In this document: positions 9,855-56,050 of the stretch, one piece after another
Layout of the letters: every line of letters starts with the position of its first letter
Numbering within the stretch: position 1 is the first letter of the stretch
Assembly (NCBI GenBank): GCA_964508295.1
Contig: CAZDSQ010000001.1
Coordinates: 1-56,764, forward strand
Source of the DNA: an uncultured Oscillospiraceae bacterium
Lineage (GTDB): Bacteria > Bacillota > Clostridia > Oscillospirales > Ruminococcaceae
Direction: 5' to 3'
Length of the DNA stretch: 56,764 bases
Made by a program: the position numbers and the translations under genes
The notes under the pieces: model-generated
Seen by the model: only the letters and a program-made list of their open reading frames with translations
What the model was told of the DNA's origin: nothing
Database searches by the model: none

Positions 9855-9866
9855 AGGAGTTTTTAA

Positions 9867-10703
9867 ATGAAATTACCGCAGTTTTATGTTGACGACATTA
9901 TAAAAAGAGCAATTACTGAGGATATAAACTACCTTGATGCTACGACCGATTATCTTATTGATGAAAATGCAAAAACAACGGCATATTTTGTTTCAAAAGA
10001 CGAGGGTGTTCTTTGCGGAATTGAAATTGCTATGAGAGTTTTTGAGCTTCTTGATGATAAGGTTGAATATACTCTACATAAAAAAGACGGAGATGCTGTT
10101 TCAAAGGGTGATCTGATTGCTGAAATGAGCGGAAACACCGCGGCGCTTTTAAAAGGCGAGAGAACTGCATTAAATCTCCTGCAGCATATGTCTGGTATCG
10201 CTACCGCAACAAATCGCTGCGTAAAGCTTGTTGAGGGAACCGGCGCAGCCGTTGCCGAGACAAGAAAGACACTCCCTGGATTACGCGCTCTACAGAAATA
10301 TGCCGTAACAGTCGGCGGCGGAAAAAATCACCGCTACAATCTCAGCGATGCGGCTATGCTTAAGGATAATCATATTGATGCCTGCGGCTCTATCAAAAAC
10401 GCCGTTGCTGCTTTCCGCAGCAAGACTGGTCATATGATTAAAATTGAGGTCGAGGTCAGAGATTTTGACGAGCTTAACGAGGCCCTTGATGCTGGCGCTG
10501 ATGTTATTATGCTCGATAATATGAGCTGCGAGCAGATGACGCAGGCTGTTAAAATCGTTGCAGGCAGAGCTAAGACCGAAGCCTCGGGCAATATAACCCT
10601 TAATAATATTGCAGAGGTTGCTAAAACTGGTGTTGACGTTATAAGCCTTGGCGCTTTAACTCACTCGGTAAAAGCCTTTGACATCTCGATGAAAATTAAA
10701 TAA
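9867..10703 (+). CDS. nadC: Nicotinate-nucleotide diphosphorylase (carboxylating)
   Basis: 278 aa. GERTALNLLQHMSGIAT, TRKTLPGLR and IMLDNM motifs. Confidence 0.9.
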   Translation: MKLPQFYVDDIIKRAITEDINYLDATTDYLIDENAKTTAYFVSKDEGVLCGIEIAMRVFELLDDKVEYTLHKKDGDAVSKGDLIAEMSGNTAALLKGERTALNLLQHMSGIATATNRCVKLVEGTGAAVAETRKTLPGLRALQKYAVTVGGGKNHRYNLSDAAMLKDNHIDACGSIKNAVAAFRSKTGHMIKIEVEVRDFDELNEALDAGADVIMLDNMSCEQMTQAVKIVAGRAKTEASGNITLNNIAEVAKTGVDVISLGALTHSVKAFDISMKIK

Positions 10704-10740
10704 AACAAAAACCGATAGCATTTTGCTATCGGTTTAATTT

Positions 10741-11712
10741 TTATATGCCTTTTTTCTTTAAAATACGAATGTCGTTTCCGCAAAATCTTAAATGCTCGTA
10801 GCAACCGAGAAGCCTTGAAGCAATTCTGTCGCTATAGCGCTGGGAAATTTCAGAGGGGGTAAGGTTTGCAGTGATAATAGTTGGCTTTTCCTCTAAAATT
10901 CGTGTATTTACAATGTTATAGAGCGCTGAAATAGTAAACGAGGTTGTAAATTCAGCCCCCAAATCGTCAATTACGAGCAAATCACAGGATAATATATTTT
11001 CAATGCTTTGCTCAGGCCTTTCCTGATTAAAGCGTTGCTTTTCAAGCGAGGTGAAAAGGTCGGGAGCAGACATATAAACGACGTTAAAGTTTTTTTGCTG
11101 AACGGTTTTTGCAATGGCAAGGGAAATGTGTGTTTTTCCTATTCCTGTTCCGCCGAAAAGCAAGAGGTTGGGGGAGGAATGTGAAAACTCCTCAGAATAC
11201 TGCTTGCAGTTTTCAAAAATGCTCTGCATTATGTTGTGGCAGGGAATGTTACCGAGCGTTTCGGGGTAGTATTTTAAATCAAAGGTATCAAAGGGATTTG
11301 GCTCTCCTGAACAGATCTCTTTTTCTTTTTCGAGCGAGCCTATAACTTCAATCAAGCACTCGCAGGGCATAGCATCAACAAAGCCGGAATCGTTACACTT
11401 TTTGCATGCGTAGTTTATATCAAGAAAATCCTTTGAAAATCCGTTTTGCGAGAGCAGATCTTTTTTTCTTTCAATGAGTGCGTTGTTTCGCTCCTTGATT
11501 TTGTTAAGCGAGGTGGTAAAATCGCCTTTGTGACTTAAAACCTCTCTTGAAATCAAAGAGCCTGACAGGGAAAGCTCGCTGTCGATTTCTTTAAGCTCGG
11601 GGATCTTATCATAAGCTATTTTTTTGTTTTCTTCAAAAATTCTTATTGCAGATTTTCTGCGGCTGTTTACAATTTCACCCGCCTGCTTTAATAACTCTAT
11701 AGAATATTTCAT
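10741..11712 (-). CDS. DnaI/DnaC-like helicase-loader ATPase
   Basis: 323 aa. Cys-rich N-domain (CKKCNDSG...CEC), Walker A GGTGIGKTH, Walker B LLVIDDLGAE. Immediately downstream of a DnaD-domain gene. Confidence 0.75.
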   Translation of the reverse strand: MKYSIELLKQAGEIVNSRRKSAIRIFEENKKIAYDKIPELKEIDSELSLSGSLISREVLSHKGDFTTSLNKIKERNNALIERKKDLLSQNGFSKDFLDINYACKKCNDSGFVDAMPCECLIEVIGSLEKEKEICSGEPNPFDTFDLKYYPETLGNIPCHNIMQSIFENCKQYSEEFSHSSPNLLLFGGTGIGKTHISLAIAKTVQQKNFNVVYMSAPDLFTSLEKQRFNQERPEQSIENILSCDLLVIDDLGAEFTTSFTISALYNIVNTRILEEKPTIITANLTPSEISQRYSDRIASRLLGCYEHLRFCGNDIRILKKKGI

Positions 11713-11730
11713 TTAAATGTCCTTTCAAGC

Positions 11731-12768
11731 TTACTTTTTCTTGGAAAGATTGGGAACGGTATAATCTGAAAAACCGTCAAATTCCTGCGCGTCAAAGGTC
11801 TTGTTAACAGAGTCACTCTGTCTGTTTTTTTCGTTTTCTTCAACGGCATCTGGAGTCTTAATATCTTTGCCGTACCAGCTCGATAAAATCTTATTTATGT
11901 ATGGGAAACTGAGTTTAGATGTATTGTCAAGACACATTTCATAAGCTAATTTTAGCATTTCAATGCTAAACTGCCATTTATCAAGCCAGACAGAAACGAA
12001 CTCTTTTTGCTTTGAGGTTAAGTTTCTATCGTGAATACCAAAAGCAGATTTAACAAGATACTCGTTGTTTTTCTCTGTGATCAAAGCCTTTATGTGATCC
12101 TCAACTGCCTTGTGGGTGTCGATGCCTTGGTCTGCCCAGCTATATGCGGTTTTCTCGATAAAGCGCATATTTGCCTTATCAATCGAGATGCAGTATTCAA
12201 TCAGCATAACGATTATATCGGCGGGCAGTCCTGCATAATCGAACATAGAAACTAAAACCGAAATCTCGCTTTGATTTAAAAATCTGCCAAACAAATGCTC
12301 GGTTTCTGAAACAAGCCATTTAAGCTCGTTTGCACTTTCGATCCTTTTGGATAACTCAAAGCCTGAAAGACGAATGGGATCATTTGTTCTGATTTTAATG
12401 CTCTTATTTACGGTGATTTCAGCTTCCTTTTTGGGCGTATCGATAGCTTTTTGTACAAGAGACTTGTCTGAAGTAACAGTCTTAGGCGTTTTTGTGATAT
12501 CTTTGCTCTCTGCGGGGGAAAGAGCGGTATCGTTTTTGGAAATGACCGAATGTTCCGTCCAGAAATCGATTGCGTCAGATACATTAGCCTCTGATACTCC
12601 TGAGATTTCGCTGATTTCTTGTTTGGACAAATTGTTTCCTGCGTTGGCTAGCAAAACAAGAAGCACCTTAACAAAGTCCTCTTTGGCAAGCTTTATGTAT
12701 TTCTCAACAATACTGTTTGGAACGGCAAATACTTTATTCCATTCTCCGAGTTCGAGTTTATAACTCAT
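11731..12768 (-). CDS. DnaD-domain replication initiation / membrane attachment protein (DnaB-like)
   Basis: 345 aa. C-terminal DnaD-type repeats (LTSKQKEFVSVWLDKWQFSIEMLKLAYE...YINKILSSW). Confidence 0.7.
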   Translation of the reverse strand: MSYKLELGEWNKVFAVPNSIVEKYIKLAKEDFVKVLLVLLANAGNNLSKQEISEISGVSEANVSDAIDFWTEHSVISKNDTALSPAESKDITKTPKTVTSDKSLVQKAIDTPKKEAEITVNKSIKIRTNDPIRLSGFELSKRIESANELKWLVSETEHLFGRFLNQSEISVLVSMFDYAGLPADIIVMLIEYCISIDKANMRFIEKTAYSWADQGIDTHKAVEDHIKALITEKNNEYLVKSAFGIHDRNLTSKQKEFVSVWLDKWQFSIEMLKLAYEMCLDNTSKLSFPYINKILSSWYGKDIKTPDAVEENEKNRQSDSVNKTFDAQEFDGFSDYTVPNLSKKK

Positions 12769-12944
12769 TTCATCAATTCCTTAATTAGTTTTGAAAGGGT
12801 GGGGAAGTAACTTTTAATATTATATCATACAATTTTAAAATAGTGTAGTTATTTTTTATTTGTTTTTTGTGTCTTTTTATAAATTAATCTGATTTTTTGC
12901 TTTAAAATAGTTGCTGTAAAAGACATAATACACCGTAAACTGTG

Positions 12945-13126
12945 GTTTACATAATTTAGTTTACATAATTATTGTGAGGTTTACATAATTACTGTGATGT
13001 AAATTCTGTAATAATGACGAAATTGTAGAAAATGTGTTTGTTGCCTTGAAAATTAACAAAAAATGTATTATTATTTATAATACAAACAGATTAGTTCTGT
13101 TTTACATAATTTTTCTTTACATATAT
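12945..13126. repeat. Array of TTTACATAAT-type motifs in the 389-nt AT-rich spacer between the DnaD-domain gene and spoIIM
   Basis: Perfect GTTTACATAATT at 12945-12956, 12959-12970 and 12979-12990. One inverted copy (GATGTAAATT, 12996-13005). Degenerate copies at 13101-13110 (TTTACATAAT) and 13116-13125 (TTTACATATA). Confidence 0.85.
12978..13005 (-). other. dif-like 11-6-11 element (candidate Xer recombination site)
   Basis: The minus strand reads AATTTACATCA-CAGTAA-TTATGTAAACC. The right arm matches 10 of 11 positions of the B. subtilis dif XerD arm TTATGTAAACT. Confidence 0.3.
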
Positions 13127-13178
13127 TCTTTTCACAGCTCATATATTTGTATAAAAAATGTGGGCAAAGGTGATCATA

Positions 13179-13799
13179 ATGAAAAGAATTATAAGGACAA
13201 GCGCTCTCAAAAACGGTTTATTTTCTCATAACCGTTTTTTTATTTCTGTCTTTTGGCTCGTTGGCATCGGAATTTTGCTTGGTACAGCCGCGGCAGGTAT
13301 GTTCTCGGGCGATGATAATTCCTTTGTAAATAACGTCTGGCAGACTTATTTTTTAAAACGTGAAACGGGGAGTATTTTTTCCTGCTTTGTAGGTACAATT
13401 TCTTCCTCAATAATGGTTTTGCTGTTATTCTATTTACTTGGCCTTTGCGCTATAGGATCGCCGTTTTTGTACTTAACTCTTGTTTTTGACTCTGTTGGAA
13501 AAGGCCTTGTTTTCGGCTTTTTATATCTTCAATATGGATTTTGGGGTATTTTAAAATCCTTTGTATTTTTGCTCCCTCAAAATGTTCTTATCTGTCTTTT
13601 GTTTATCTATGCAGTTAACTTTTCGGTTAAAATGTCAAGGCAGATGCGCTGTCTTTTGTCTGATAACAACATGACAGTGGATTACCACCTTAATTTTAAG
13701 AAGTACAATCAAAAGTATTTATTTTTTGGCTTTTGTTTAGTTTTAATCAGCGTATTTGATGCCATTATGTCACGATTTACGTATTTGATTATAAAATAA
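13179..13799 (+). CDS. spoIIM: Stage II sporulation protein M-like membrane protein
   Basis: About 206 aa with 5-6 TM segments. The FLLPQNVLICLLFIYAVNFSVKMSRQ segment parallels the B. subtilis SpoIIM FPQN region. Start taken at MKRIIR with an AAGGTGA RBS. Confidence 0.6.
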   Translation: MKRIIRTSALKNGLFSHNRFFISVFWLVGIGILLGTAAAGMFSGDDNSFVNNVWQTYFLKRETGSIFSCFVGTISSSIMVLLLFYLLGLCAIGSPFLYLTLVFDSVGKGLVFGFLYLQYGFWGILKSFVFLLPQNVLICLLFIYAVNFSVKMSRQMRCLLSDNNMTVDYHLNFKKYNQKYLFFGFCLVLISVFDAIMSRFTYLIIK

Positions 13800-13823
13800 A
13801 ATTTTAAGAAAGGAAGTGTTTAT

Positions 13824-14714
13824 ATGTTCGATATGCTCCAAGAATATAAAGTGTATCTGAAAGACAAGCTTTGCGTTTCAAAGAGCACCTACGATGCTTA
13901 TGTCCGGGACGTTTCGTCGTTCCTGAGCTATGTAGACATTTCCGTTTCCCACGATATCCGCGATGTCAGAGAAAATGATCTTGAGGGCTTTAAAAAAGCT
14001 CTTGAAATGCGTGGAAAAACACCCGCAACTGTAAACCGCAGTTTTGCATCGGTCAAGAGCTTTTACAGATTTTTGCGTGTTGCAGGAATTCAGAGCTATG
14101 ACCCTACTGAGAAATTCCACGCCGTAAAGCAAGAAAAAAAGCTCCCCACAATTCTTTCCGGAAAAGAAGTGGACAAGCTTTTAAGAATTCCGGATGTAAA
14201 TACTCCCAAGGGCTGTAGAGATAAGGCTATGCTTGAGCTTCTGTATGCAACGGGAATGAGAGTTTCCGAGCTTATTGATTTAAATCTTGACGATATTCAG
14301 TTGGGCAGAAGTATTGTTTCTTGCCGAAGCGGAAATGTGATAAGGAGTATTCCTATTTATTCCGCGGCAAAAAATGCGATCAAAGATTATCTTTTAAGGG
14401 TTTATCCTTATTATTCTCAAAATGATAATAACGCTCTTTTTATAAATATGAACGGTACAAGGCTTACAAGACAAGGCTTTTGGAAAATAGTTAAGCATTA
14501 TGCCGATGAACTTGGTCTAAAGGTTGAAATAACCCCACACACACTTCGCCATTCGTTTGCGGCGCATCTTATTGAAAACGGAGCAAGCGTTGAGGATGTT
14601 AAGGAAATGCTTGGACATGCAGATATTTCATCAACACAAATTTATGCACAAATTGTAAATAATCGGTTTAAAGATACATACAACCGTTGCCATCCGCGCG
14701 CAAAAAGTGTATAA
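13824..14714 (+). CDS. xerD: Tyrosine site-specific recombinase XerD/XerC family
   Basis: 296 aa. N-terminal SAM-like domain and catalytic region ATGMRVSEL...HTLRHSFAAHL...LGHADISSTQIY. Confidence 0.85.
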   Translation: MFDMLQEYKVYLKDKLCVSKSTYDAYVRDVSSFLSYVDISVSHDIRDVRENDLEGFKKALEMRGKTPATVNRSFASVKSFYRFLRVAGIQSYDPTEKFHAVKQEKKLPTILSGKEVDKLLRIPDVNTPKGCRDKAMLELLYATGMRVSELIDLNLDDIQLGRSIVSCRSGNVIRSIPIYSAAKNAIKDYLLRVYPYYSQNDNNALFINMNGTRLTRQGFWKIVKHYADELGLKVEITPHTLRHSFAAHLIENGASVEDVKEMLGHADISSTQIYAQIVNNRFKDTYNRCHPRAKSV

Positions 14715-43002: not shown

Positions 43003-43962
43003 ATGCGATCAATCGGTGTTTTAACAAGCGGAGGAGATGCTCCCGGTATGAACGCTGCCGTTCGTTCGGTTGTGCGCTGTGCTCTCGCTGAGGGATTTAA
43101 GGTTTATGGTATTTATGATGGTTATAACGGTCTTATCAATGGCAAAATTGAAGAGATGTCCGTTAATAGTGTTTCTAATATTATAAATAAGGGCGGTACA
43201 GCTATTTATACCGCAAGATGCCTTGAGTTTAAGGATCAGGAAGGCGTTTTAAAGGGAAAAGAAACCTGCGAAAAGCTTGGCATTGAAGGTCTTGTTGTTA
43301 TTGGAGGAGATGGATCTTTCCGTGGTGCAGCTGATCTTTCGTCAGCCGGCATTAACTGCGTAGGTATCCCCGGAACTATTGATAATGATATTACCTGTAC
43401 CGATTATACAATTGGTTACGACACAGCAATGAACACCGTTGTTGATTTAATTGATAAGCTTCGCGACACCTGTAACTCTCACGCTCGTTGCAGCGTTGTT
43501 GAGGTTATGGGCAGAAGATGCGGCGACCTTGCTCTTAATGCAGGTCTTGCGGGCGGTGCAACAGCTATAGTTGTTCCTGAAATTCCTTTTGATTTTGAAA
43601 AGGATATTCTTGCAAAGGTTGTTGACGCTAAAAACAGAGGCAAGCACAACTTCATCGTTGTTGTTGCTGAGGGAATCGGTGGCTCTGCTGAAATTGCAAA
43701 GAAGATCGAGGAAGCTACCGGAATTGAAACCCGTGCCGCTATCTTAGCACACATTCAGCGTGGTGGCGCTCCTTCCGCAAAGGACAGAATCATTGCTTCA
43801 AGAATGGGTAAATATGCTGTTGACCTCTTAAAGAATGGAATCGGTAACAGAGTTGTTGCTATGAAGGGTAACGAAATTGTTGACTATAATATCCACGAGG
43901 CTCTTAAAATGAAAAAGAGCATCGATCAGGAGCTCTTTAAGCTGGCAGATTTAATTAAATAA
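43003..43962 (+). CDS. pfkA: ATP-dependent 6-phosphofructokinase
   Basis: 319 aa. GVLTSGGDAPGMNAA, GGDGS and PGTIDND motifs. Confidence 0.92.
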   Translation: MRSIGVLTSGGDAPGMNAAVRSVVRCALAEGFKVYGIYDGYNGLINGKIEEMSVNSVSNIINKGGTAIYTARCLEFKDQEGVLKGKETCEKLGIEGLVVIGGDGSFRGAADLSSAGINCVGIPGTIDNDITCTDYTIGYDTAMNTVVDLIDKLRDTCNSHARCSVVEVMGRRCGDLALNAGLAGGATAIVVPEIPFDFEKDILAKVVDAKNRGKHNFIVVVAEGIGGSAEIAKKIEEATGIETRAAILAHIQRGGAPSAKDRIIASRMGKYAVDLLKNGIGNRVVAMKGNEIVDYNIHEALKMKKSIDQELFKLADLIK

Positions 43963-43966
43963 AACC

Positions 43967-44003
43967 AGAACCCTATGTAATTTGTTACATAGGGTTCTTT
44001 TTT
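43967..44003. terminator. Bidirectional terminator at the convergence of pfkA and the FAD-protein gene
   Basis: 14-bp perfect stem AGAACCCTATGTAA/TTACATAGGGTTCT with a 4-nt loop, a T-run downstream and an A-run upstream. Confidence 0.75.
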
Positions 44004-47912: not shown

Positions 47913-49049
47913 TTATATTTGCCTTAGAATATTGCAGAGATAATCAATCTCTTTTTCAGTATTAAAATACGAAAAACTTACCCTTACAGTACCTGTTTCT
48001 CTTGTTCCCAAAAAGCTGTGTGCTATTGGAGAGCAATGTAAACCGCTTCTGACGGCTATATTATACTTGTCAAGTGTATCAGCAATATCTGTAGAGGCTT
48101 TGCCCTTTACATTGAATGAAACAGTTGCGACTGCCTTGTTTTCGGCTGGCTCGCTTGAATAAAGCAAAATATGTGGCATTTGAATCAGTTTTTTGTAAAA
48201 ATAACGTGCCAGTTCAAGTTCGTGACTGTAAATATTATTTATTCCAACTTTATTTATGAAAGAAATGCCTGCGGATAAACCTGCTGCGCCAGATACGTTA
48301 ACAGTTCCGCTTTCAGCCACATCAGGCAGAAAATCAGGCTGTTCTAAACTTGTTGAAACACTTCCGGTGCCGCCGTAAATAATAGGGGAGAGCGAAATTT
48401 TTTGATTTATTATCAGTAAACCTGTACCAGTGGGTCCAAATAGACCCTTGTGACCGGGGCAGCACAAGATATCTATGCTGTCCTGATGCATGTTTATTGG
48501 AATAATGCCTGCGGTTTGCGATGCATCTACGCAGAAAATCAGATTTTTACGCCTGCAGAGCTCTGAAATTTCTTTAATTGGTGCGATTTTTCCGGTAACA
48601 TTAGATGCATGAGTGCAAATTATCATTTTTGTGTTGACATCGGCGAGTTTTTCGAACTCTTTAACGGCCAAATCTGCGTTTTCGAATGAAATTTTAGCAA
48701 CTTTATAACTGCAGATATTATTGCTTTTAAGATAATCTAACGGCCGCATAACAGAATTATGTTCAAAATTAGAAACAATAGCATTTCCGCCGTTTTTCAT
48801 TACGCTGAATATAGCTAAATTAAGTGCCTCAGTACAGTTTTTTGTTAATATAACACGTTCACAATCAGGCATTCCAAAGAAATCAGCCGCTTTTTCTCTT
48901 AAATTATATACTATTTTGGCCGCATTTAAGGACATTTTATGGCCACTTCTACCAGGGTTTCCACCATATTTTGTAATACTATCGTAAACAGCCTTTGCAG
49001 TTTCGGGCGGTTTTGGATAAGAAGTGGCCGCATTATCAAAATAAATCAT
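47913..49049 (-). CDS. Class V aminotransferase-fold cysteine desulfurase family protein
   Basis: 378 aa. PLP lysine region CCPGHKGLFGP and active-site Cys region RSGLHCSP. Confidence 0.8.
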   Translation of the reverse strand: MIYFDNAATSYPKPPETAKAVYDSITKYGGNPGRSGHKMSLNAAKIVYNLREKAADFFGMPDCERVILTKNCTEALNLAIFSVMKNGGNAIVSNFEHNSVMRPLDYLKSNNICSYKVAKISFENADLAVKEFEKLADVNTKMIICTHASNVTGKIAPIKEISELCRRKNLIFCVDASQTAGIIPINMHQDSIDILCCPGHKGLFGPTGTGLLIINQKISLSPIIYGGTGSVSTSLEQPDFLPDVAESGTVNVSGAAGLSAGISFINKVGINNIYSHELELARYFYKKLIQMPHILLYSSEPAENKAVATVSFNVKGKASTDIADTLDKYNIAVRSGLHCSPIAHSFLGTRETGTVRVSFSYFNTEKEIDYLCNILRQI

Positions 49050-49282
49050 AAGTACACCTCGTCATCCGATCGTATGTCATTTATCTTGATATTGTTTTTT
49101 TCTAAGATATTTTTTGCGGCTTCCAGTTGATTAGAATTTATTACAACACTATAGCCACAGCCACAGCTGCTGAATTGAGAGGGAGTTTTAACTACCAAGC
49201 CATAAATATGATTTGCACTAAGAACTTTTTCTGATTTCATTGCAAATGTAACCGAAGGCATATTTATATAAATTTTTTGCAT
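49046..49282 (-). CDS. DUF3343-like small protein (putative sulfur/selenium carrier partner)
   Basis: 78 aa from MQKIY (RBS AGGAAGGTG). CGCG motif. 4-nt overlap with the downstream desulfurase gene. Confidence 0.6.
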   Translation of the reverse strand: MQKIYINMPSVTFAMKSEKVLSANHIYGLVVKTPSQFSSCGCGYSVVINSNQLEAAKNILEKNNIKINDIRSDDEVYL

Positions 49283-49440
49283 GAAAACACCTTCCTGAAT
49301 TTTTAAATTTAAAACCATTACATTATATGCAATAGAAAAAAATTTCGATAAAAGATCAGAAGATGTTTTAAAACAAATTTATAAAATATATAGTTTAAAT
49401 ACAAATCCATTCATTATAAAAAGAGGGATAAAAGCAGTAA

Positions 49441-49758
49441 ATGAGCTATTTTGCCAATGTTTCGGCACTTATTGCTTCCCCGAGTTATACAAAATATTTA
49501 TTTTGTCTATGTATTTCTGCTGTTCCCTATGTCCTCTCAGACCGAAAGCGTATGCGCAAGAATATGGAACGTTTAAAGGGATATTTCTACGCTATGCTGC
49601 TTGAATATGACCATTGGTCTGATTCAGCTCGGCAAGAGTTTCTCGATGAAGCTCGATTGCGGTTTGAATCGCAAAAGAAATATAATTTTTTCCGTGATGA
49701 GCTTGTCGATACTGTTAAAGGTTATGAGCCTGGTTATCAGCCTTTAACAGTTGCTTAA
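49441..49758 (+). CDS. Junction ORF: short host-derived 5' end fused at attL to what appears to be the displaced 3' end of the prophage rep gene
   Basis: The att core is read in the same codon phase (L-F-C-L) here and at the 3' end of rep. The frame stays open for 82 codons beyond the core. Confidence 0.5.
   Translation: MSYFANVSALIASPSYTKYLFCLCISAVPYVLSDRKRMRKNMERLKGYFYAMLLEYDHWSDSARQEFLDEARLRFESQKKYNFFRDELVDTVKGYEPGYQPLTVA
49489..49510 (+). repeat. attL core (direct repeat)
   Basis: ACAAAAT-ATTTATTTTGTCTAT. The 15-mer ATTTATTTTGTCTAT (49496-49510) is identical to 54463-54477. Confidence 0.8.
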
Positions 49759-49768
49759 GGTGATTAGT

Positions 49769-49939
49769 ATGAAAAAATCACTTCATCCGATCCACCCTTT
49801 TTTCCGTTGTGTAGATTCAGCTATTTTCTTTGATTTCGTAGAGTATGTTTTGCGCAATTTTAAGTGCGAGCTTTTTCAGCTTCCCCAGGATGAACAACTT
49901 TATTTATTTTCGAGATTTAGGCTATTGGAGTATATGTGA
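49769..49939 (+). CDS. Prophage hypothetical protein (56 aa)
   Basis: ATG preceded by an AAGGTGA RBS. Same strand and tightly packed. No recognisable motif. Confidence 0.4.
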   Translation: MKKSLHPIHPFFRCVDSAIFFDFVEYVLRNFKCELFQLPQDEQLYLFSRFRLLEYM

Positions 49940-49984
49940 TTATGCAATGTAATGATATTTAATTATTTTAAGGAGTGTAATTTT

Positions 49985-50266
49985 ATGATTAAATGTACAA
50001 TTGAAGGTCTTTTTGTAGGTAGTTCTCAGATGGCTAATAGAAATGGCAGCGGCACCACTACTGTCGCAGATATCTACGTTATTAAGCTTAAGAAATCTTT
50101 TCAGATTTTCCGTTATGAACAGCAGCACCAGGACGGTACCGTTGTTTCAATCCCTTGTGAGCTTCGTTTCCGTCAGGATGGCTCTCCTTATTTTGTTTAT
50201 TTAGCTCCTTCTGAAGCGCTGCAGAACGAAGCTGATAAAAATAACTCTGTAAAGGAGAATAAATGA
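49985..50266 (+). CDS. Prophage small protein in the gV position (candidate ssDNA-binding protein)
   Basis: 93 aa with a strong AAGGAG RBS. Beta-rich composition. Size and position immediately upstream of the coat genes match inovirus gV. No sequence motif was recognised. Confidence 0.35.
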   Translation: MIKCTIEGLFVGSSQMANRNGSGTTTVADIYVIKLKKSFQIFRYEQQHQDGTVVSIPCELRFRQDGSPYFVYLAPSEALQNEADKNNSVKENK

Positions 50267-50451
50267 TGGACGGTGTTACTATGTCTACAATACTCACCAG
50301 TATTGGTGCTGTTTTTACCCAGGTTGTTACTTGGGCTGGTGATGTCCTCGGTCTGATAGCTTCAAATCCCATCCTCCTGCTTCTTTGTGTTGCTCTTGTG
50401 ATTGTCGGTTTTGTTGTTGGCTGGGTCTCTCGCCTATTCCGTACAAATTAA
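50263..50451 (+). CDS. Coat-like single-TM peptide, paralogue 1
   Basis: 62 aa (56 aa if it starts at 50281). Amphipathic N-terminus, a 20-residue hydrophobic core LLLLCVALVIVGFVVGWV, and a basic tail SRLFRTN. Confidence 0.5.
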   Translation: MMDGVTMSTILTSIGAVFTQVVTWAGDVLGLIASNPILLLLCVALVIVGFVVGWVSRLFRTN

Positions 50452-50464
50452 GGAGGTCTGATTT

Positions 50465-50635
50465 ATGGATACTATTCTCAGTAATATCGGTTTAGTTTTT
50501 ACCCAGGTTATCGCCTGGGCAGGAGATGTCCTCGAGCTTATTGCAACAGAGCCTATTCTTTTACTTATGTGCGTTGCACTTGTAATCGTTGGATTTGTTG
50601 TCGGCTGGGTCTCTCGCCTATTCCGTACTAACTAA
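50465..50635 (+). CDS. Coat-like single-TM peptide, paralogue 2 (below the ORF-track size cutoff)
   Basis: 56 aa: MDTILSNIGLVFTQVIAWAGDVLELIATEPILLLMCVALVIVGFVVGWVSRLFRTN. AAGGAGG RBS 8 nt upstream. 46 of 56 residues are identical to paralogue 1. Confidence 0.5.
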   Translation: MDTILSNIGLVFTQVIAWAGDVLELIATEPILLLMCVALVIVGFVVGWVSRLFRTN

Positions 50636-50640
50636 AGCTT

Positions 50641-50670
50641 AAAGCCCTCGCTCTGAGCGGGGGCTTTATT
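50641..50670 (+). terminator. Strong rho-independent terminator directly after the coat-like gene pair
   Basis: 11-bp GC-rich stem AAAGCCCTCGC/GCGGGGGCTTT with a 5-nt loop and a TTTATT tail. Confidence 0.75.
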
Positions 50671-50686
50671 CAAATAAGGTGATTTT

Positions 50687-51673
50687 ATGAAAAAGAAAAT
50701 TATATGCCTTGTTTCTTCAGTTCTTTTATCTGTATTCCTTTTTTGTATGCCGACTTTTGCATACTCTCAGCTTTTTACAAATTACTTTAATTTGAATTAT
50801 ATTTCATTAGGTTCTTTGCCTGCTTCTGACTACTATAATATTGTTAATCAGGAAGCTGGACAGATGGATGTTAAAACTTCTGACGGTAGTGATTTTGCCG
50901 AGTTTAGCTATATTGATATCTATTTTAGCTATTTCGGTACAACTATCAATGCTGGTGATCGCTTTGTAGGTTCTTTTTATTTCGTTGTATCAGACTATGC
51001 CTCAAATGGCAAAAATCCGAATAGTCCGCCCGCTACTTCAAGTATTCAAGCTCAAATTAATGGCGGTAGCTCTACTGTAATTGGAAAAGTTACTTTAGTA
51101 GCTCATTCTTATGATACTTCTATAAACTCAAATTTATATCGTTTTAAGGTTGATTTTGACTGTTATTTCAAAGAAACTGTTGAGCGTATGCAATGTTCAA
51201 TTCGCGTAAACTTTAATGGTTTTACCCCTCAGACTTCTCATATGATTTCAGCACAATTTCTTGAGATCTATAATTTTTATTTAGGTGCTGCCGATGCTCC
51301 TGAAGCTCCGAAGTATAGTGACCCTTACGATTCTTATGGGTCTGATCTTGATTCAACCGTGGATGGGATAGATAATTATACAGATGAGGAACAGGAAATT
51401 CTTGATAAAACCGAGTCTGGCAGAAATGAAGCTTTGCAGCTTTTCAATAATTTGACCGATACCGTTGGTCAGATTTCTCATACTCTTTTGGCCGTAACTT
51501 ATGGTTTGAATTACTTTATCGGTTCAAGTGCTTTGCTTCATTCGATTTTGTATATTTCTCTTGCTCTCGGTTTTGTGCTATTTATTTTCAATGCAGTCCC
51601 CTCTTTATCTCATTCCCGTTCTCGTTCAGAACCCAGGAATACTAATTCTGGTAAGAAAGGTGATGGTGGTTAA
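50687..51673 (+). CDS. Prophage secreted protein with a C-terminal membrane anchor (pIII-like minor coat / adsorption protein candidate)
   Basis: 328 aa. Signal peptide MKKKIICLVSSVLLSVFLFCMPTFAYS, an acidic linker, and a C-terminal TM LLHSILYISLALGFVLFIFNAV followed by a basic tail. Confidence 0.5.
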   Translation: MKKKIICLVSSVLLSVFLFCMPTFAYSQLFTNYFNLNYISLGSLPASDYYNIVNQEAGQMDVKTSDGSDFAEFSYIDIYFSYFGTTINAGDRFVGSFYFVVSDYASNGKNPNSPPATSSIQAQINGGSSTVIGKVTLVAHSYDTSINSNLYRFKVDFDCYFKETVERMQCSIRVNFNGFTPQTSHMISAQFLEIYNFYLGAADAPEAPKYSDPYDSYGSDLDSTVDGIDNYTDEEQEILDKTESGRNEALQLFNNLTDTVGQISHTLLAVTYGLNYFIGSSALLHSILYISLALGFVLFIFNAVPSLSHSRSRSEPRNTNSGKKGDGG

Positions 51674-51906
51674 TGCTTAATTTCTTTGATATGTTGGCTG
51701 AATGTTTTGACTTAATTCTTGCCTTTTTTACTACTATTGCAACTCTGATAACTAATTTCTTATCTGGACTTGTTACTGCTTTTAGAATCTTAACTGACGT
51801 TGTTACCATTCCCGTTATTTTTACTGCTTTTGTTCCTGGTATTATTTCATCTGCAATTTTTATCTTTGTTGCTCTGGGTGTCATAAAGTTTATTATAGGA
51901 CGGTGA
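51673..51906 (+). CDS. Prophage hydrophobic protein (77 aa, pVI-position)
   Basis: TAATG overlap with the upstream gene. Two to three TM segments. Confidence 0.45.
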   Translation: MLNFFDMLAECFDLILAFFTTIATLITNFLSGLVTAFRILTDVVTIPVIFTAFVPGIISSAIFIFVALGVIKFIIGR

Positions 51907-51910
51907 GATT

Positions 51911-52096
51911 ATGGGAAATATTACTGGTTGCTTTACTCTTATAGTTGATTTTTTCTGGGATTTTGTTACTCTCCTGGATTCAAAAGTAAGGTTTGATTTC
52001 TTTGGAGCTCTTTCGATTTCTATAGTTGATATTTTTGTCGGTTTTATTATTTTAGGATTTGTTATATCTGTATTTTGGAGAGGTGCAAAAGCATGA
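51911..52096 (+). CDS. Prophage hydrophobic protein (61 aa)
   Basis: Two predicted TM segments. Its stop overlaps the next start (ATGA). Confidence 0.45.
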   Translation: MGNITGCFTLIVDFFWDFVTLLDSKVRFDFFGALSISIVDIFVGFIILGFVISVFWRGAKA

Positions 52097-52212
52097 TTAT
52101 TTTATCTTGTTTACCATTTATTCTTGAAGGCTTTACTTACGTATCGGGTGTTTTTTTACTGTCTTATGTTTTTGGAATCGTATTTAAACTATTCGGAGGT
52201 GCTCGCCGATGA
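52093..52212 (+). CDS. Prophage micro-ORF (39 aa, hydrophobic), not in the ORF track
   Basis: MIILSCLPFILEGFTYVSGVFLLSYVFGIVFKLFGGARR. ATGA overlaps at both ends. Confidence 0.35.
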   Translation: MIILSCLPFILEGFTYVSGVFLLSYVFGIVFKLFGGARR

Positions 52213-52286
52213 GCTTGCAGGTAATTCTTTTAATGGCTATATTTATGGTTTTATGTATTTTTGTTTTTGGTGGAGGTGTTAATTGA
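52209..52286 (+). CDS. Prophage micro-ORF (25 aa, hydrophobic), not in the ORF track
   Basis: MSLQVILLMAIFMVLCIFVFGGGVN. It bridges the neighbouring ORFs exactly through overlapping stop/start codons. Confidence 0.25.
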   Translation: MSLQVILLMAIFMVLCIFVFGGGVN

Positions 52287-52480
52287 TGCAAACAATTCTT
52301 GATGCCCTTAGAGCTGTTCTTGGTGAGCCTGATTTTTATAAACAGCTTACAAGTAGCAGTAACTATACCTGGGACTATGCTGCAATGATTGAATATATGG
52401 TTGGTGCTCTTATCCTCTGTATCGTTGTTTCATCCGTTTTCCGCATAGTCGCTCTTCTTTTCAAAAGAGGTAAAAACTGA
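52286..52480 (+). CDS. Prophage small membrane protein (64 aa)
   Basis: GGTGGAGGTG RBS. Soluble N-terminus, one C-terminal TM and a basic tail KRGKN. TGATG overlap with the ATPase gene. Confidence 0.45.
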   Translation: MQTILDALRAVLGEPDFYKQLTSSSNYTWDYAAMIEYMVGALILCIVVSSVFRIVALLFKRGKN

Positions 52481-53241
52481 TGATTAGAGTATTTTTCGGT
52501 AATATCGGATGCGGCAAGACTACCCTGGCAGCACGTCAGTTTTATAAGTGCCTTCGACGTGATCAGCGAGACGTTAATAGAAAACGTACACCACTTTATG
52601 ACTATTACATTTCAAATTTTGAATGTGAGCTTGCGCAGTTCTGCCGCCTTGCCGATCTCGGACGTTGGACTTTCCCTGAACATTCGTATATCATTATCGA
52701 CGAAGCTGGCATTGAGTATAATAACCGTAAGTTTAAATCTCTCCCACAAGAAACGATTGCTTGGCTTAAGCTTAGCCGACACTACAAATGCGACGTTGAT
52801 TTTCTCTCTCAGAGCTGGGATGATATGGATATTACGATTCGCCGCCTGGCATCAGAGCTGTGGTATGTACGTAAGCTCGGACCTTTCACAATGCTTCGCC
52901 GAATATATAAACGAGTAGGCATTGACTCAGAAACCCACCAAATTTGCGATTTTTACGAGTTTGGCAAAATACTGCCTTGTATACTTCCCCCACCTTTTAG
53001 GCAGCATAACATCGAAATTTTCCTGCGAAAACCCTATTATAAATACTTCGACAGTTATACTAAACCCGAAACCCCCGTCTTTCCTTTCTCAGAGCTTAAA
53101 GCAAAAGCTGTTCCTTTTCCGAAGCAGCTGCTTACCTGGATAAAAGGAATTGGGCCGCGCGCCCTTAGCGCAGTTACCAGATTGCAGCTTAAAGAGAAGC
53201 TTGCCCTGGTCCTCGACCGCCTGCGCTGCAGGAAACAGTAA
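52480..53241 (+). CDS. Zot/pI-like P-loop ATPase (filamentous phage assembly protein)
   Basis: 253 aa. Walker A GNIGCGKT, Walker B YIIIDEAG, and the Zot-family block LSRHYKCDVDFLSQSWDDMD. Confidence 0.75.
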   Translation: MIRVFFGNIGCGKTTLAARQFYKCLRRDQRDVNRKRTPLYDYYISNFECELAQFCRLADLGRWTFPEHSYIIIDEAGIEYNNRKFKSLPQETIAWLKLSRHYKCDVDFLSQSWDDMDITIRRLASELWYVRKLGPFTMLRRIYKRVGIDSETHQICDFYEFGKILPCILPPPFRQHNIEIFLRKPYYKYFDSYTKPETPVFPFSELKAKAVPFPKQLLTWIKGIGPRALSAVTRLQLKEKLALVLDRLRCRKQ

Positions 53242-53268
53242 ATTCTCCTGCCTTTTGTTACCAAAAAA

Positions 53269-53314
53269 AGACAAACAAAACCCGCCAAACATATTGGCGG
53301 GTTTTAGTTTGTCT
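53269..53314 (+). other. Long near-perfect hairpin (terminator and/or packaging-signal / origin candidate)
   Basis: 20-bp stem (AGACAAAC+AAAACCCGCCAA pairing with TTGGCGGGTTTT+GTTTGTCT) with a single A bulge and a 5-nt loop, 28 nt after the ATPase stop. Confidence 0.6.
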
Positions 53315-53344
53315 GACGCCCCAAAACCCCGAGGGGTATCACGG

Positions 53345-53396
53345 GGTTAAAATTCCTCATATAATCCTTGGGTTAAAATTCCTCATATAATCCTTG
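53345..53396 (+). repeat. Perfect 26-nt tandem duplication GGTTAAAATTCCTCATATAATCCTTG x2
   Basis: Copies at 53345-53370 and 53371-53396 are identical. The second copy runs into the -35 box of the rep promoter. Confidence 0.9.
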
Positions 53397-53422
53397 ACAA
53401 ATGCAAAATTATGCCTTAAAAT
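53394..53422 (+). promoter_or_regulatory. Consensus sigma-A promoter upstream of rep
   Basis: TTGACA (53394-53399), 17-nt spacer, TAAAAT (53417-53422). Confidence 0.65.
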
Positions 53423-53429
53423 GAAAATA

Positions 53430-53497
53430 CCGGATGCGCAGCATCCGTCTAAACATCCGGTACCGGTCGCTGAGGGGCAGTTCCCTTACTGCCCCCT
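53430..53497 (+). other. Cluster of GC-rich hairpins in the rep leader (origin / nick-site candidates)
   Basis: CGGATGC-GCA-GCATCCG (53431-53447). Palindrome CCGGTACCGG (53457-53466). GGGGCAG-TTCCCTTA-CTGCCCC (53474-53495). Confidence 0.5.
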
Positions 53498-53516
53498 GCA
53501 AACTTTAAGGGAGTGA

Positions 53517-54485
53517 ATGACTATGACACAAGAATTTTTCGAGAAAAATTACAAATTCGGAATGGACTGGTTGAACGGTGTTCTACCACTTACTGAGGTT
53601 GACGAGGTTTTTGATATGCTCGAATCCTTTTCGTCTAAGCTTAAGAAAGATCGTTGGAAGCTTATGTCGAAGGGTAAGTATAACTATCAAGTCCGTTATT
53701 GCCTTGATGATAAAGGTTTTATTCAGCTTATGTATAATACTGATTATTATGATGCTGACGGGAATCCTGGACTTACTGCATTAAATCCCGATGAATCAAA
53801 TAACCCCTATATTTTCTTTTCTATTTCGGGTGATGGTATCAGATACCTTGCTTCTATCGGTGGCGAAATGACCGCTTTAAATAAGCTTTTATGCTATTTT
53901 TATGCAAATGGTTTCAAAGCTACTCGTTTTGATGTCTACTGCGATATTCTTGATAAAAGAAATGAAATCGTTCCTCTTCTGAAGAAGTCTTTTGATTATT
54001 TTATTCATCCAAGAGTTAGTTATCCTACTTTAACTACTGGTTTTCATCGCGATCGTAAAAATATTCAAATCCGTTATTCTTATGATGATGATGGCAAGAG
54101 ATTCTATAATCTGCAGTTAGGTCATCATGGCTCTTTATTCGGTATGTTCCGTTGCTATAATAAGCTTATTGAGGTGCAGGATGGCAGACTTGCAGGCTTT
54201 TCATCCGAGATTTTAAAGCAATACGGTGTATCTGATTATTGGTATAGGTTAGAGTATGAGATACACGAACATGCTGCAGCTTGTTTTAATGCTGCTATGC
54301 AGGAGAGCTGCGAAAACAATCAGCTTTCTGTTCGGAGTATTTTTTGTGTTGCTGCAGAAAAAATGTTTTCTCCTGTTACTGTTAAAGGTTTAGGTATGAA
54401 GCTTGCTGATTCAGATAAGTGTGTTATATGGCTTGATTTTCTCAGCTTCGTTCGACAAAATGATTTATTTTGTCTATTTATGTAG
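53517..54485 (+). CDS. Rep_trans-type rolling-circle replication initiator (apparently C-terminally truncated by integration)
   Basis: 322 aa. FGMDWLNGV, TRFDVYCDI, FRCYNKLIE and WYRLEYEI match my recollection of the PF02486 family blocks (RstA/RepC-like). The last 3 codons plus the stop lie beyond the att core. Confidence 0.75.
   Translation: MTMTQEFFEKNYKFGMDWLNGVLPLTEVDEVFDMLESFSSKLKKDRWKLMSKGKYNYQVRYCLDDKGFIQLMYNTDYYDADGNPGLTALNPDESNNPYIFFSISGDGIRYLASIGGEMTALNKLLCYFYANGFKATRFDVYCDILDKRNEIVPLLKKSFDYFIHPRVSYPTLTTGFHRDRKNIQIRYSYDDDGKRFYNLQLGHHGSLFGMFRCYNKLIEVQDGRLAGFSSEILKQYGVSDYWYRLEYEIHEHAAACFNAAMQESCENNQLSVRSIFCVAAEKMFSPVTVKGLGMKLADSDKCVIWLDFLSFVRQNDLFCLFM
54455..54477 (+). repeat. attR core (direct repeat)
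   Basis: ACAAAATGATTTATTTTGTCTAT, differing from attL by one inserted G. Confidence 0.8.
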
Positions 54486-54510
54486 ATTTTTTAAAGTGAC
54501 TTCCCTATAA

Positions 54511-54540
54511 TAAAAACATCCCGATTTTTATCTCGGGATG
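54511..54540 (-). terminator. galT terminator
   Basis: 8-bp stem CATCCCGA/TCGGGATG with an 8-nt loop. A T-run on the minus strand, 10 nt after the galT stop. Confidence 0.7.
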
Positions 54541-54550
54541 CTCTGTATTT

Positions 54551-56050
54551 TTATTTTACGGAATTAACAAATTTCATAAATGCATCTCTTCCGTCTTCTG
54601 TGCATTTGTAAACTCCTGCACATTCCAAAACTTTTCCAAATACAATTCCAACTTCTTTTTCAATAATTTCATTAATATTATCTTTATTTAAATCGGAATA
54701 TTTTTGTTTGATTTCATCTACCCAATCGGCATGCTTCTCAAGTTCTGCATCAGCGCGAATATCGTCTCCATTGATTATAGCATCGCAGAGTCTTGAAAGT
54801 TCCCTTTCGAGCCTTGCAGGAAGAACGGCTAATCCCATAACCTCTATAAGACCGATATTTTCCTTCTTAATATGATGATATTGTGCGTGCGGATGATAAA
54901 CACCAAGCGGATGCTCTTCTGATGTGATATTGTTACGAAGAACTAAGTCCATCTCAAACATATCGGCATTTTTTCTTGCAATAGGAGTTATTGTGTTGTG
55001 AGGCGCACCATCGGTTTCGGCAAAAATAAAAGCTTCCTCGTCGGTATACCCTCTCCACTTTGTTAAAATTTTATCAGACAGTTCAATTATTCTATCGGTG
55101 TTTTTTCCACGCAATCTGATAACAGACATCGGCCACTTAACAATTCCTGCCTCAACATCATCAAAACCATCAAATTTAATGGTTTTTTCAATCGGAGCCT
55201 TTGCCATAGCAAAATCATATCTTCCGCCCTGGAAATGATCGTGGCTTAAAATAGAGCCGCCAACGATCGGTAAATCAGCATTTGAACCCAAGAAATAATG
55301 CGGGAAAAGCTTTACAAAGTCAAAAAGCTTAACAAACGTGGCCTTCTCTATTTTCATAGGAGTGTGCTCAAAGTTAAACACGATACAATGCTCATTATAA
55401 TAGACGTAGGGTGAATACTGAAGACCCCAAGCGCTCTGGTTTACTGTTATAGGAATGATCCTGTGATTTTGTCTTGCAGGAGAATCAACTCTACCAGCAT
55501 ATCCCTCGTTTTCGCGGCACAAAAGGCATTTGGGATATCCACTCTGCTTTGCATTTTTTGCAGCAGCGATTGCCTTGGGATCCTTTTCAGGTTTTGAAAG
55601 ATTTATTGTGATGTCTAAAGTGCCGAATTCTGTTTCGGTTGTCCATTTCCTATCCTTTTTAATTCTGTCAACGCGAATATAGTTACTGTTACGGCTTAAA
55701 TCATAATAAAATTCGGTTGCAGCCTTAGGGCTACTCTGATATAAAGTGTTAAATTCCTTTATAACCTCGCTCGGCCTAGGCATAACTGCGCCCATAATCT
55801 TTGTATCCAATAAATCGCGATAGACGATACTATCCTCTATTATCCCCTGCTCTATCGCATAATCGCAAATTCCGTTTAAAATTACACAGAGGTCAGCGTC
55901 TTCGCTTGCCTCATATGTATACTCATTTAAATTAAGAATTTCGATTATTCTGTTAACAGTGTAAGTTTTATCAAGCTCATTGATAAGCTTTTTATCAAGG
56001 GCATAGTTAACAAGAGCCGTAATTAACTGGTTTATGTTCATAAAATTCAC
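54551..56050 (-). CDS. galT: UDP-glucose--hexose-1-phosphate uridylyltransferase (type 2 GalT)
   Basis: 499 aa, Gram-positive long form. HDHFQGG active-site motif. Confidence 0.9.
   Translation of the reverse strand: MNFMNINQLITALVNYALDKKLINELDKTYTVNRIIEILNLNEYTYEASEDADLCVILNGICDYAIEQGIIEDSIVYRDLLDTKIMGAVMPRPSEVIKEFNTLYQSSPKAATEFYYDLSRNSNYIRVDRIKKDRKWTTETEFGTLDITINLSKPEKDPKAIAAAKNAKQSGYPKCLLCRENEGYAGRVDSPARQNHRIIPITVNQSAWGLQYSPYVYYNEHCIVFNFEHTPMKIEKATFVKLFDFVKLFPHYFLGSNADLPIVGGSILSHDHFQGGRYDFAMAKAPIEKTIKFDGFDDVEAGIVKWPMSVIRLRGKNTDRIIELSDKILTKWRGYTDEEAFIFAETDGAPHNTITPIARKNADMFEMDLVLRNNITSEEHPLGVYHPHAQYHHIKKENIGLIEVMGLAVLPARLERELSRLCDAIINGDDIRADAELEKHADWVDEIKQKYSDLNKDNINEIIEKEVGIVFGKVLECAGVYKCTEDGRDAFMKFVNSVK

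Follow-up and report, generated by a model that had tools for sequence, protein, structure and literature searches.

An integrase-less inovirus-like prophage with a divided rep gene at a dif-like palindrome in an Oscillospiraceae genome

How does a phage-like genome of about 5 kb, in which no integrase is recognized, come to lie among the host genes of a bacterial chromosome, and could it leave again? The question is raised by a block of genes in a 56,764-nucleotide stretch of DNA from an uncultured Oscillospiraceae bacterium (contig CAZDSQ010000001.1 of assembly GCA_964508295.1), the whole of which we refer to as the window. The block occupies positions 49,496-54,478, amounts to a 4,967-bp insertion and is enclosed by minus-strand host genes, with a Se/S-carrier (DUF3343-type) gene and a gene for a class-V aminotransferase/cysteine desulfurase in the left flank and galT in the right flank. 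Thirteen same-strand open reading frames (ORFs) are listed between 49.4 and 54.5 kb, and the stops and starts of several of them overlap. An earlier note made from the letters alone had described the block as an integrase-less, filamentous (inovirus-like) prophage. The same-strand organization, the flanking genes and the motifs quoted there are all present at the given places in the ORF listing, and the Zot protein, the Rep_trans fold, the gene order, the insertion and the circular relatives agree in supporting the prophage interpretation. Integrase or transposase matches were found neither among the ten largest ORFs compared with Pfam and PHROGs nor among the five of these compared with NCBIfam (the three smallest ORFs, of 61, 45 and 25 aa, lay outside these scans), and for the ORFs scanned the integrase-less description is upheld. 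We consider it probable that the block is an intact temperate inovirus (Tubulavirales) of Oscillospiraceae, lacking an integrase, that enters a dif-like palindrome by means of a host Xer-type recombinase and in doing so splits its own rep gene.

Insertion, empty site and division of rep

The empty site is seen in a related genome, L025 (GCA_054279615.1), which was located through galT homologues and has a galT 92% identical to that of the window. In L025 galT is followed by 268 bp and then by the Se/S-carrier gene, with no block between them. The two genomes are collinear to the left and to the right of the block (88-89% identity), such that the window corresponds to L025 plus 4,945-4,967 bp, and in L025 the two alignments share 21 bp, the attachment (att) core being present once there and twice in the window. 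The limits of the element in this alignment coincide exactly with the att cores. In the window these form a direct repeat (49491-49514 and 54458-54481) with a spacing of 4967, in which 21 of 24 positions match, including a 15-bp exact core, ATTTATTTTGTCTAT. The L025 empty site, AGTAGACAAAA-TAAATA-TTTTGTATAAC, is the host site (attB) predicted from the window and occurs as one copy in that locus. Related genomes thus do include the empty csd-galT intergenic site that the earlier note had suggested looking for. Its converse, the same block at the same place everywhere and without flanking repeats, does not apply, since L025 has no block and repeats flank that of the window. Exact-protein look-ups aimed at the empty site gave nothing for the Se/S-carrier gene and only one 1.4-kb contig for the cysteine desulfurase. 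The coding strand of the block is also T-rich, with an AT skew of -0.18 compared with about 0 in the flanks.

Relatives of the element exist as free circles. Four short Rep-bearing contigs were examined for circularity, and all have 30-nt terminal overlaps, corresponding to circles of 5,042 nt for L016 (a contig of 5,072 nt) and of ~5,302 nt for L017-L019 (contigs of 5,332-5,333 nt). L017-L019 derive from three separate sequencing runs and are circular permutations of each other, and these circles carry a Rep of 402 or 411 aa. Among close strains, moreover, the same site is polymorphic, being empty, occupied by the phage of the window, or occupied by another phage. Such comparisons of sequence support the view that the window block is mobile.

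The two ends of the integrated element carry the two parts of one gene. The 5' part of rep (53517..54485, plus strand) encodes 322 aa as integrated, including the motifs FGMDWLNG, TRFDVYCDI, RCYNK and WYRLEYEI, contains the complete Rep_trans catalytic fold and takes its stop codon from host DNA; the 3' part (49496..49758, plus strand) encodes a C-terminal four-helix domain of ~80 aa, parted from the remainder of rep by integration. Joining 53517-~54470 to ~49504-49758 generates an in-frame 402-aa Rep that is collinear to its end with homologues of 391-402 aa (P0002-P0007). The left-most ORF (49441-49758) is therefore not a gene of its own but the 3' part of rep; the circular order proposed earlier (Rep, small genes, coat, pIII-like, membrane proteins, pI-like, intergenic region) is right, but rep spans the junction. 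We note that positions 49441-49503 supply a host-derived ATG and 21 codons in frame ahead of the C-terminal rep fragment, giving a 105-aa chimeric ORF. Its start is not conserved in L003, an Oscillospiraceae metagenome-assembled genome (SVOZ01000001.1) that is 75-80% identical to the window, and its expression is therefore doubtful. L003, together with a 95%-identical galT that bears the Oscillospiraceae name, is also the basis on which the host of the window is placed in that family.

The same division is seen in all seven prophages compared, in which Rep is 311-329 aa as integrated, the far-end fragment is in frame, the joined product is 392-421 aa and the C-terminal motif is conserved. The narrow range of integrated lengths arises because the phage attachment site sits in a linker inside rep: the break falls at residues 311-330, the sole low-confidence stretch of the Rep structural model, between the Rep_trans domain and helices 331-388, and the 322-aa form keeps the entire fold seen in the Geobacillus rolling-circle initiator 4cij. 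Homologues of Rep fall into two classes. The long class (64 proteins of 378-446 aa) is found exclusively on contigs of no more than 6.7 kb, and the short class (24 proteins of 249-338 aa) takes in all contigs above 9 kb (the longest of 176 kb), where the proteins are of 309-329 aa. This provides a simple rule for finding such prophages, namely a Rep of ~315 aa that ends in a host half-site and lacks 80 codons, which are found ~5 kb upstream.

Could the block instead be a cryptic and immobile remnant, irreversibly integrated, producing no phage and left with an inactive, truncated Rep? Integration of the CTXphi type is irreversible (PMC6744903), rep is truncated in the window, attR is imperfect with a 7-bp spacer, and a circular form is known from relatives and not from this exact element. 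However, 13 of the 13 ORFs are intact, so that there is no sign of the pseudogenization which the earlier note would have counted against a functional phage, and all of them, down to the ORFs of 45 and 25 aa, recur in conserved, collinear form in diverged relatives, both circles and prophages. The C-terminal rep fragment, which is in frame in seven of seven prophages, and the polymorphism of the site among close strains likewise argue against a remnant, which we regard as improbable.

The attachment site and the recombinase that probably uses it

If the element is an intact temperate phage, the structure of its junctions should point to the enzyme that it uses. The left junction, attL (49484..49511, plus strand), is a complete dif-like site, GTTATACAAAA-TATTTA-TTTTGTCTATG, with a host-derived left arm and centre and a phage-derived right arm. 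The right junction, attR (54450..54478, plus strand), is GTTCGACAAAA-TGATTTA-TTTTGTCTATT, with a phage-derived left arm and centre (rep codons 312-320) and a host-derived right arm. The attB of the window is accordingly GTTATACAAAA-TATTTA-TTTTGTCTATT, an 11-6-11 near-perfect palindrome. Comparison of the junctions of the window, L003, L007, L008, L010, L011 and L015 yields seven reconstructed attB sites, each with inverted arms of 11-14 bp around an asymmetric 6-bp centre; the arms are perfect in L007/L010, L011 and L015 and near-perfect elsewhere. The L007 site is CAATTATACAAAA-TGAATA-TTTTGTATAATTG and that of L015 is AACTTCGCAAAA-CATTGA-TTTTGCGAAGTT. The 11-6-11 arrangement of arms and spacer is that of a tyrosine-recombinase core.

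Each phage site (attP), which is always inside rep, has 3-6 nt of the centre and the downstream arm in common with its host site; the second arm is degenerate in the L003, L007, L008 and L015 lineages and good (8/11) in the window. Mimicry of one arm plus the centre, with the complete site kept at attL, is seen across seven prophages and three free genomes, and 22 of 23 positions agree between the attP of the free phage L017 and the L008 host half-site. The orientation of the prophages is reversed between orthologous sites (the window relative to L003, and L007/L010 relative to L008), which is explained by co-variation of the phage centres with the host centres, the phage centre matching whichever strand of the host centre fits its orientation. 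A search of JGI metagenome contigs with an exact 22-nt host-site pattern gave 0 matches. The idea that the palindrome is a mere transcription terminator was ruled out, as it is AT-rich, its sequence is conserved where the neighbouring genes are not homologous, and galT has its own, GC-rich terminator apart from it.

The site is also used by unrelated elements. In L022-L024, in which galT is 95% identical to that of the window, it holds a different integrase-less inovirus of ~4.3 kb (L022 11570-15899) with a Rep_OBD initiator and a 203-aa Zot. The attP of this phage is intergenic, its galT-side junction has a 10-bp spacer, and the complete dif-like site lies on the opposite side relative to the window. 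In L003 a tandem array (9081-14169) of at least two copies of a 2,544-bp element separates the Rep_trans prophage from the host flank; the assembly has an N10 gap at 9067-9076. This element has a GC content of ~43%, against 36% for the host, and encodes a REP_ORF2-G2P-type initiator (263 aa) together with a 208-aa protein that consists of a tyrosine recombinase catalytic domain only. Each copy is bounded by a two-arm dif-like sequence, TTTATGCAAAA-CCCATA-TTTTGTATAAC.

These other occupants bear on an alternative in which the phage's own Rep_trans protein integrates and releases the prophage, nicking a hairpin-loop sequence common to phage and host and joining the strands; Rep would then initiate at one copy of the duplicated core and stop at the other. 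The att core can form a hairpin and sits inside rep, an arrangement that may be likened to the pT181-type plasmids, in which the origin lies inside repC. Such a role is also compatible with the whole catalytic fold being retained by the prophage Rep, and with phage and host having just one strand-specific half-site in common. Elements with three different initiators use the same site, however, including the unrelated Rep_OBD of L022 and REP_ORF2-G2P of L003, and this argues against Rep-mediated integration. So do the site geometry of 11-13 / 6 / 11-13, which is that of a tyrosine-recombinase core, the restriction of homology to the spacer and one arm, as in Xer-exploiting elements, and the presence of a separate structured intergenic region that is a likelier origin. 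We find this mechanism very improbable.

The preferred reading is that the enzyme is a Xer-type tyrosine recombinase of the host, as we infer from the site, and circumstantial evidence suggests that, whole-genome copy number aside, the host palindrome is the chromosomal dif site. In its right arm, TTTTGTATAAT, 8 of 11 positions agree with the XerD arm of Escherichia coli dif (TTATGTTAAAT; PMC2731167). A switch of both GC skew and gene strand is found 5.5 kb from the site, in L025 as well as in the window, and this distance is within the range tabulated for Proteobacteria, where dif lies ~0.2 to 78 kb from the skew maximum (39.1 kb in E. coli K12; PMC2731167). The switch itself is at 43962-44003 of the window, between a convergent pfkA (plus strand) and a gene for a FAD-dependent protein (minus strand), where gene strand changes and GC skew passes from ~+0.15 to negative; the same is seen in L025, and the region of the window looks like a replication terminus. 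Xer-family genes with best matches to XerD or XerC lie ~70-200 bp from the site in L007, L008, L010 and L015, which represent other genera. A pair comprising spoIIM and a XerD-like recombinase gene adjoins the palindrome in three genomes of another genus, L007 (3482-5020), L008 (11013-12567) and L010 (3906-5444), and the other flank in L010 is formed by the SMC-FtsY-...-LeuS block found upstream of galT in the window lineage. That the xer-like gene in L007, L008 and L015 is a phage integrase was considered and ruled out, as it is outside the direct repeats and in the conserved host synteny adh - spoIIM - xer, on either side of the prophage according to where that host flank lies.

Several observations weigh against an intact, Xer-dependent inovirus. 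There is no xer gene within the window, the attP spacer of the window is 7 bp and not 6, and the circular form is known from relatives and not for the window prophage itself. At the level of the proteins, the Zot protein lacks an obvious transmembrane segment, and in Pfam there is no PF02486 match for the 322-aa Rep at E<=1 or for the 402-aa form at E<=0.01. The arms are more palindromic than those of classical XerC/XerD dif, being almost perfectly symmetrical, and their inner bases are CAAAA/TTTTG compared with the canonical ATAA/TTAT; no clear switch of skew is evident beside the site in L008, L010, L011 or L015, whose flanks of 3-10 kb are short for this purpose, as are those of L007; and the co-resident element of L003 carries its own short tyrosine recombinase, so that a non-Xer enzyme may act in some hosts. 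The symmetry of the arms, their non-canonical inner bases, the four lineages with no skew switch and the L003 recombinase would also fit a host tyrosine recombinase other than the dimer-resolution Xer, with the palindrome being some other conserved recombination site and not dif. This alternative does not readily account for the conservation of the site across genera in different gene neighbourhoods, its single copy in the empty locus, its position 5.5 kb from a terminus-like switch in two genomes, its proximity to genes best matching XerD or XerC, or its 6-bp spacer, and we think it unlikely.

Under the preferred interpretation of an Xer-dependent inovirus, a plausible course of events can be outlined. 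A free circle of ~4,967 nt would replicate by a rolling-circle mechanism using the 402-aa Rep_trans initiator, and the virion would be assembled and extruded by the Zot/pI-type ATPase and the small membrane proteins. A host Xer-type tyrosine recombinase would integrate the phage at GTTATACAAAA-TATTTA-TTTTGTCTATT, most likely dif, which the phage site mimics in its centre and one arm only. With attP located in the linker between the catalytic and the C-terminal four-helix domains of Rep, integration divides rep between the two ends of the prophage, a 322-aa Rep being encoded at one and the final 80 codons at the other, and regenerates a complete dif-like site at attL. Excision would presumably restore full-length rep: ~54467 joined to ~49496 would read CGACAAAATGATTTATTTTGTCTATGTATTTC, coding for the 402-aa protein.

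Gene content of the element

The identification of the initiator as Rep_trans is strongly, if indirectly, supported by family-level and structural comparisons. The direct PF02486 match that would have secured the earlier assignment was not obtained, and no usable match came from comparing the 322-aa Rep directly with Pfam, NCBIfam, PHROGs or PDB sequences, but PF02486 is matched by 46 of 58 aligned members of the Rep family (best 1.5e-10) and the family profile matches PDB 4cij at 5e-6. The AlphaFold model of Rep (pLDDT 91.7, pTM 0.89) also matches 4cij chains A-D in Foldseek with E-values of 2e-15 to 2e-14 and target TM scores of 0.68-0.73 (0.71 at E=2e-15). The homologue alignment has an invariant R212-x-Y214-x-K216 motif (R212-C-Y214-N-K216 in the window) together with E246/E248/H250, which makes Y214 a candidate for the catalytic tyrosine. 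There was no match in a tblastn search of the joined Rep against 50,697 GenBank phage records and no relative in a Rep-based scan of IMG/VR viral contigs, and the C-terminal domain had only two weak matches, giving no functional clue, among 1.8 billion representative proteins.

The assembly ATPase is recognized by a direct family match. This Zot/pI-like protein of 253 aa (52480..53241, plus strand; motifs GNIGCGKT and YIIIDEAG) matches PF05707 at 32.8 bits, above the Pfam gathering score of 20.3, as had been anticipated, and PHROG 197 (Zot-like) at 1.5e-14. With tblastn, 69 further matches were obtained among the uncultured gut inoviruses of GenBank (4.6-8.5 kb), the top one being bajarodino virus 44 (48%). 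Relatives differ in the length of the C-terminal third (203-286 aa), and in this variability and the lack of an obvious transmembrane segment the protein differs from pI of Gram-negative inoviruses. Because the gut inoviruses with related Zot proteins include genomes of 4.6-5.2 kb, a genome of ~5 kb is not exceptional, contrary to the earlier suggestion that it would be at the small end for the family. An inovirus genome can be recognized as a small circle of ~4.5-12 kb whose genes share one strand and run in the order replication-structural-assembly, and the 4,967-nt unit and its circular relatives have this organization.

The remaining genes are all on the plus strand. Following the 3' part of rep is a 62-aa ORF (49751..49939) to which no role is assigned; it is 63-66% identical in L001, L003 and L016 and gave no family match in Pfam and PHROGs scans. 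The 93-aa protein in the gV position (49985..50266) is modelled as a five-strand OB barrel (AlphaFold pLDDT 82.8), and its top Foldseek matches are bacterial single-stranded DNA-binding proteins and RPA, with probability 1.0, TM scores of 0.55-0.62 and weak E-values (~1e-2); on this modelled fold it is a candidate single-stranded DNA-binding protein.

Two paralogous coat-like genes follow, at 50263-50451 and 50465-50635, as had been proposed, although the products are of 62 and 56 aa and not both of ~56 aa. In each, a single hydrophobic helix stands between an acidic N-terminus and a basic C-terminus, and neither has a Pfam or PHROGs family match. The duplication is a tandem one of 172 nt (50280-50451 and 50464-50635) with 76% nucleotide identity. 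A coat-like gene is kept in all relatives; it is duplicated in the window and in L003 and single in the free genomes L001 and L016. The strong terminator described 3' of these genes corresponds to a terminator-like hairpin at 50640..50668 (plus strand), whose stem is of 13 bp (z = -3.25; -21.5 kcal/mol) and leads into UUUAUU.

The pIII-like protein of 328 aa (50687..51673), with its signal peptide and C-terminal membrane anchor, is also as first described. It has no family match in Pfam or PHROGs, its N-terminal half is variable, and conservation among relatives is confined to residues ~195-325. The series of tiny hydrophobic proteins corresponds to five ORFs of 77, 61, 45, 25 and 65 aa (51673..52480) with overlapping stops and starts. 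Each is kept in several relatives, and the 65-aa ORF is present in seven of seven compared elements, including the most distant, L015.

The structured intergenic region (53242..53516, plus strand) lies between the ATPase gene and rep. Folded as single-stranded DNA it has an energy of -54.2 kcal/mol compared with -28.5 +/- 3.5 for shuffled sequences (z = -7.3). Within it are a hairpin of 20 bp (53269-53314), a tandem pair of perfect 26-bp repeats (53344-53395) and a site resembling a promoter (53394-53422), as well as other hairpins, and the region is a candidate for the replication origins and the packaging signal. The 26-bp repeats (GGGTTAAAATTCCTCATATAATCCTT) run precisely up to the -35 hexamer of the top promoter match upstream of rep, and may be an operator or an iteron; DNA similarity between the window and L003 starts only at the second copy (53370). 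An Rfam scan of 49000-55000 gave no family.

Relationship to known systems

The exploitation of chromosome-dimer resolution by integrase-less filamentous phages is a textbook mechanism. The closest parallels to the window prophage are the Xer-exploiting phages of Vibrio and Xanthomonas known as IMEX (VGJphi, TLCphi and CTXphi; PMC5357621, PMC4246890), which are likewise integrase-less inoviruses at an 11-6-11 dif-type site. Their attP also consists of one dif arm and the centre with a degenerate second arm, and dif is regenerated at one junction. Different elements are stacked at the site in both cases, as in the TLC-RS1-CTX arrays at dif of Vibrio cholerae. All of the IMEX in a 2017 review are from Proteobacteria (PMC5357621), whereas the host of the window phage belongs to the Gram-positive-type Clostridia (Oscillospiraceae). 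The window phage differs further in that its attP is inside the rep coding sequence, so that rep is split on integration, and in that its host site is almost perfectly palindromic and receives phages in both orientations. Its initiator is of the Rep_trans and not the RstA/gpII type, and its dependence on Xer is inferred.

Gram-positive inoviruses include Clostridium CAK1 and Propionibacterium B5; as a group they are small Zot-encoding prophages or episomes of Firmicutes and Actinobacteria, without a secretin and with direct-repeat flanks. The Enterocloster inoviruses (PMC10061712) resemble the window element in being small, Zot-encoding, without a secretin, flanked by direct repeats and hosted by gut Clostridia, and differ in being 6.5-8.5 kb long. 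The text of that report does not contain the terms integrase or Xer, and the mechanism of integration is not discussed (PMC10061712).

Inoviruses of gut Clostridia are thus already known (PMC10061712), and integrase-less inoviruses at dif are classical. In the literature searched we found no description of a Xer-exploiting element in Clostridia or other Gram-positives, nor of an attP embedded in rep, with the initiator partitioned in the lysogen, or of a near-perfect palindromic site used both ways. A bolder proposal, which we offer only tentatively and think rather doubtful, is that these are the first Xer-exploiting phage family to be described in Clostridia and pinpoint the hitherto undefined dif of Oscillospiraceae, and that the attP in the Rep linker acts as a lysogeny switch. 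Truncation may affect the activity of Rep: on this view, integration would remove a domain needed for productive replication, and only excision would re-form the active initiator. If these Clostridia phages do exploit chromosome-dimer resolution as the proteobacterial ones do, the strategy would reach into a section of the human and animal gut microbiota that is abundant but poorly cultured. It would also provide a sequence-level handle on the Oscillospiraceae dif and on a hot spot for the accumulation of small elements of several kinds, and a virus with its replication gene physically split during lysogeny would make a simple test case.

Individual components of this arrangement have counterparts in other systems. 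The XerS/difSL system of streptococci (PMC1914069) has a recombinase gene linked to its site, as do the palindromes with neighbouring xer genes in L007, L008, L010 and L015. However, difSL is 31 bp and XerS ~356 aa, the proteins beside the palindrome best match XerD or XerC, and this linkage is absent in the lineage of the window itself. With the pT181-family Rep_trans initiators (RepC/RepD, and the Geobacillus Rep of 4cij) the window Rep has in common the fold, the R-x-Y-x-K motif, the acidic/His cluster and a catalytic core of ~310 aa. It is only ~18% identical to them, is encoded by a phage, and adds the C-terminal four-helix domain (331-388), which has no detectable relatives outside its own family. 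The division of a viral gene by integration and its restoration by excision also has a precedent in the fusellovirus SSV1, whose attP lies inside its integrase gene. The likeness is one of analogy only: SSV1, an archaeal double-stranded DNA virus, splits its own integrase, whereas the phage of the window splits its replication initiator and would rely on a recombinase encoded by the host.

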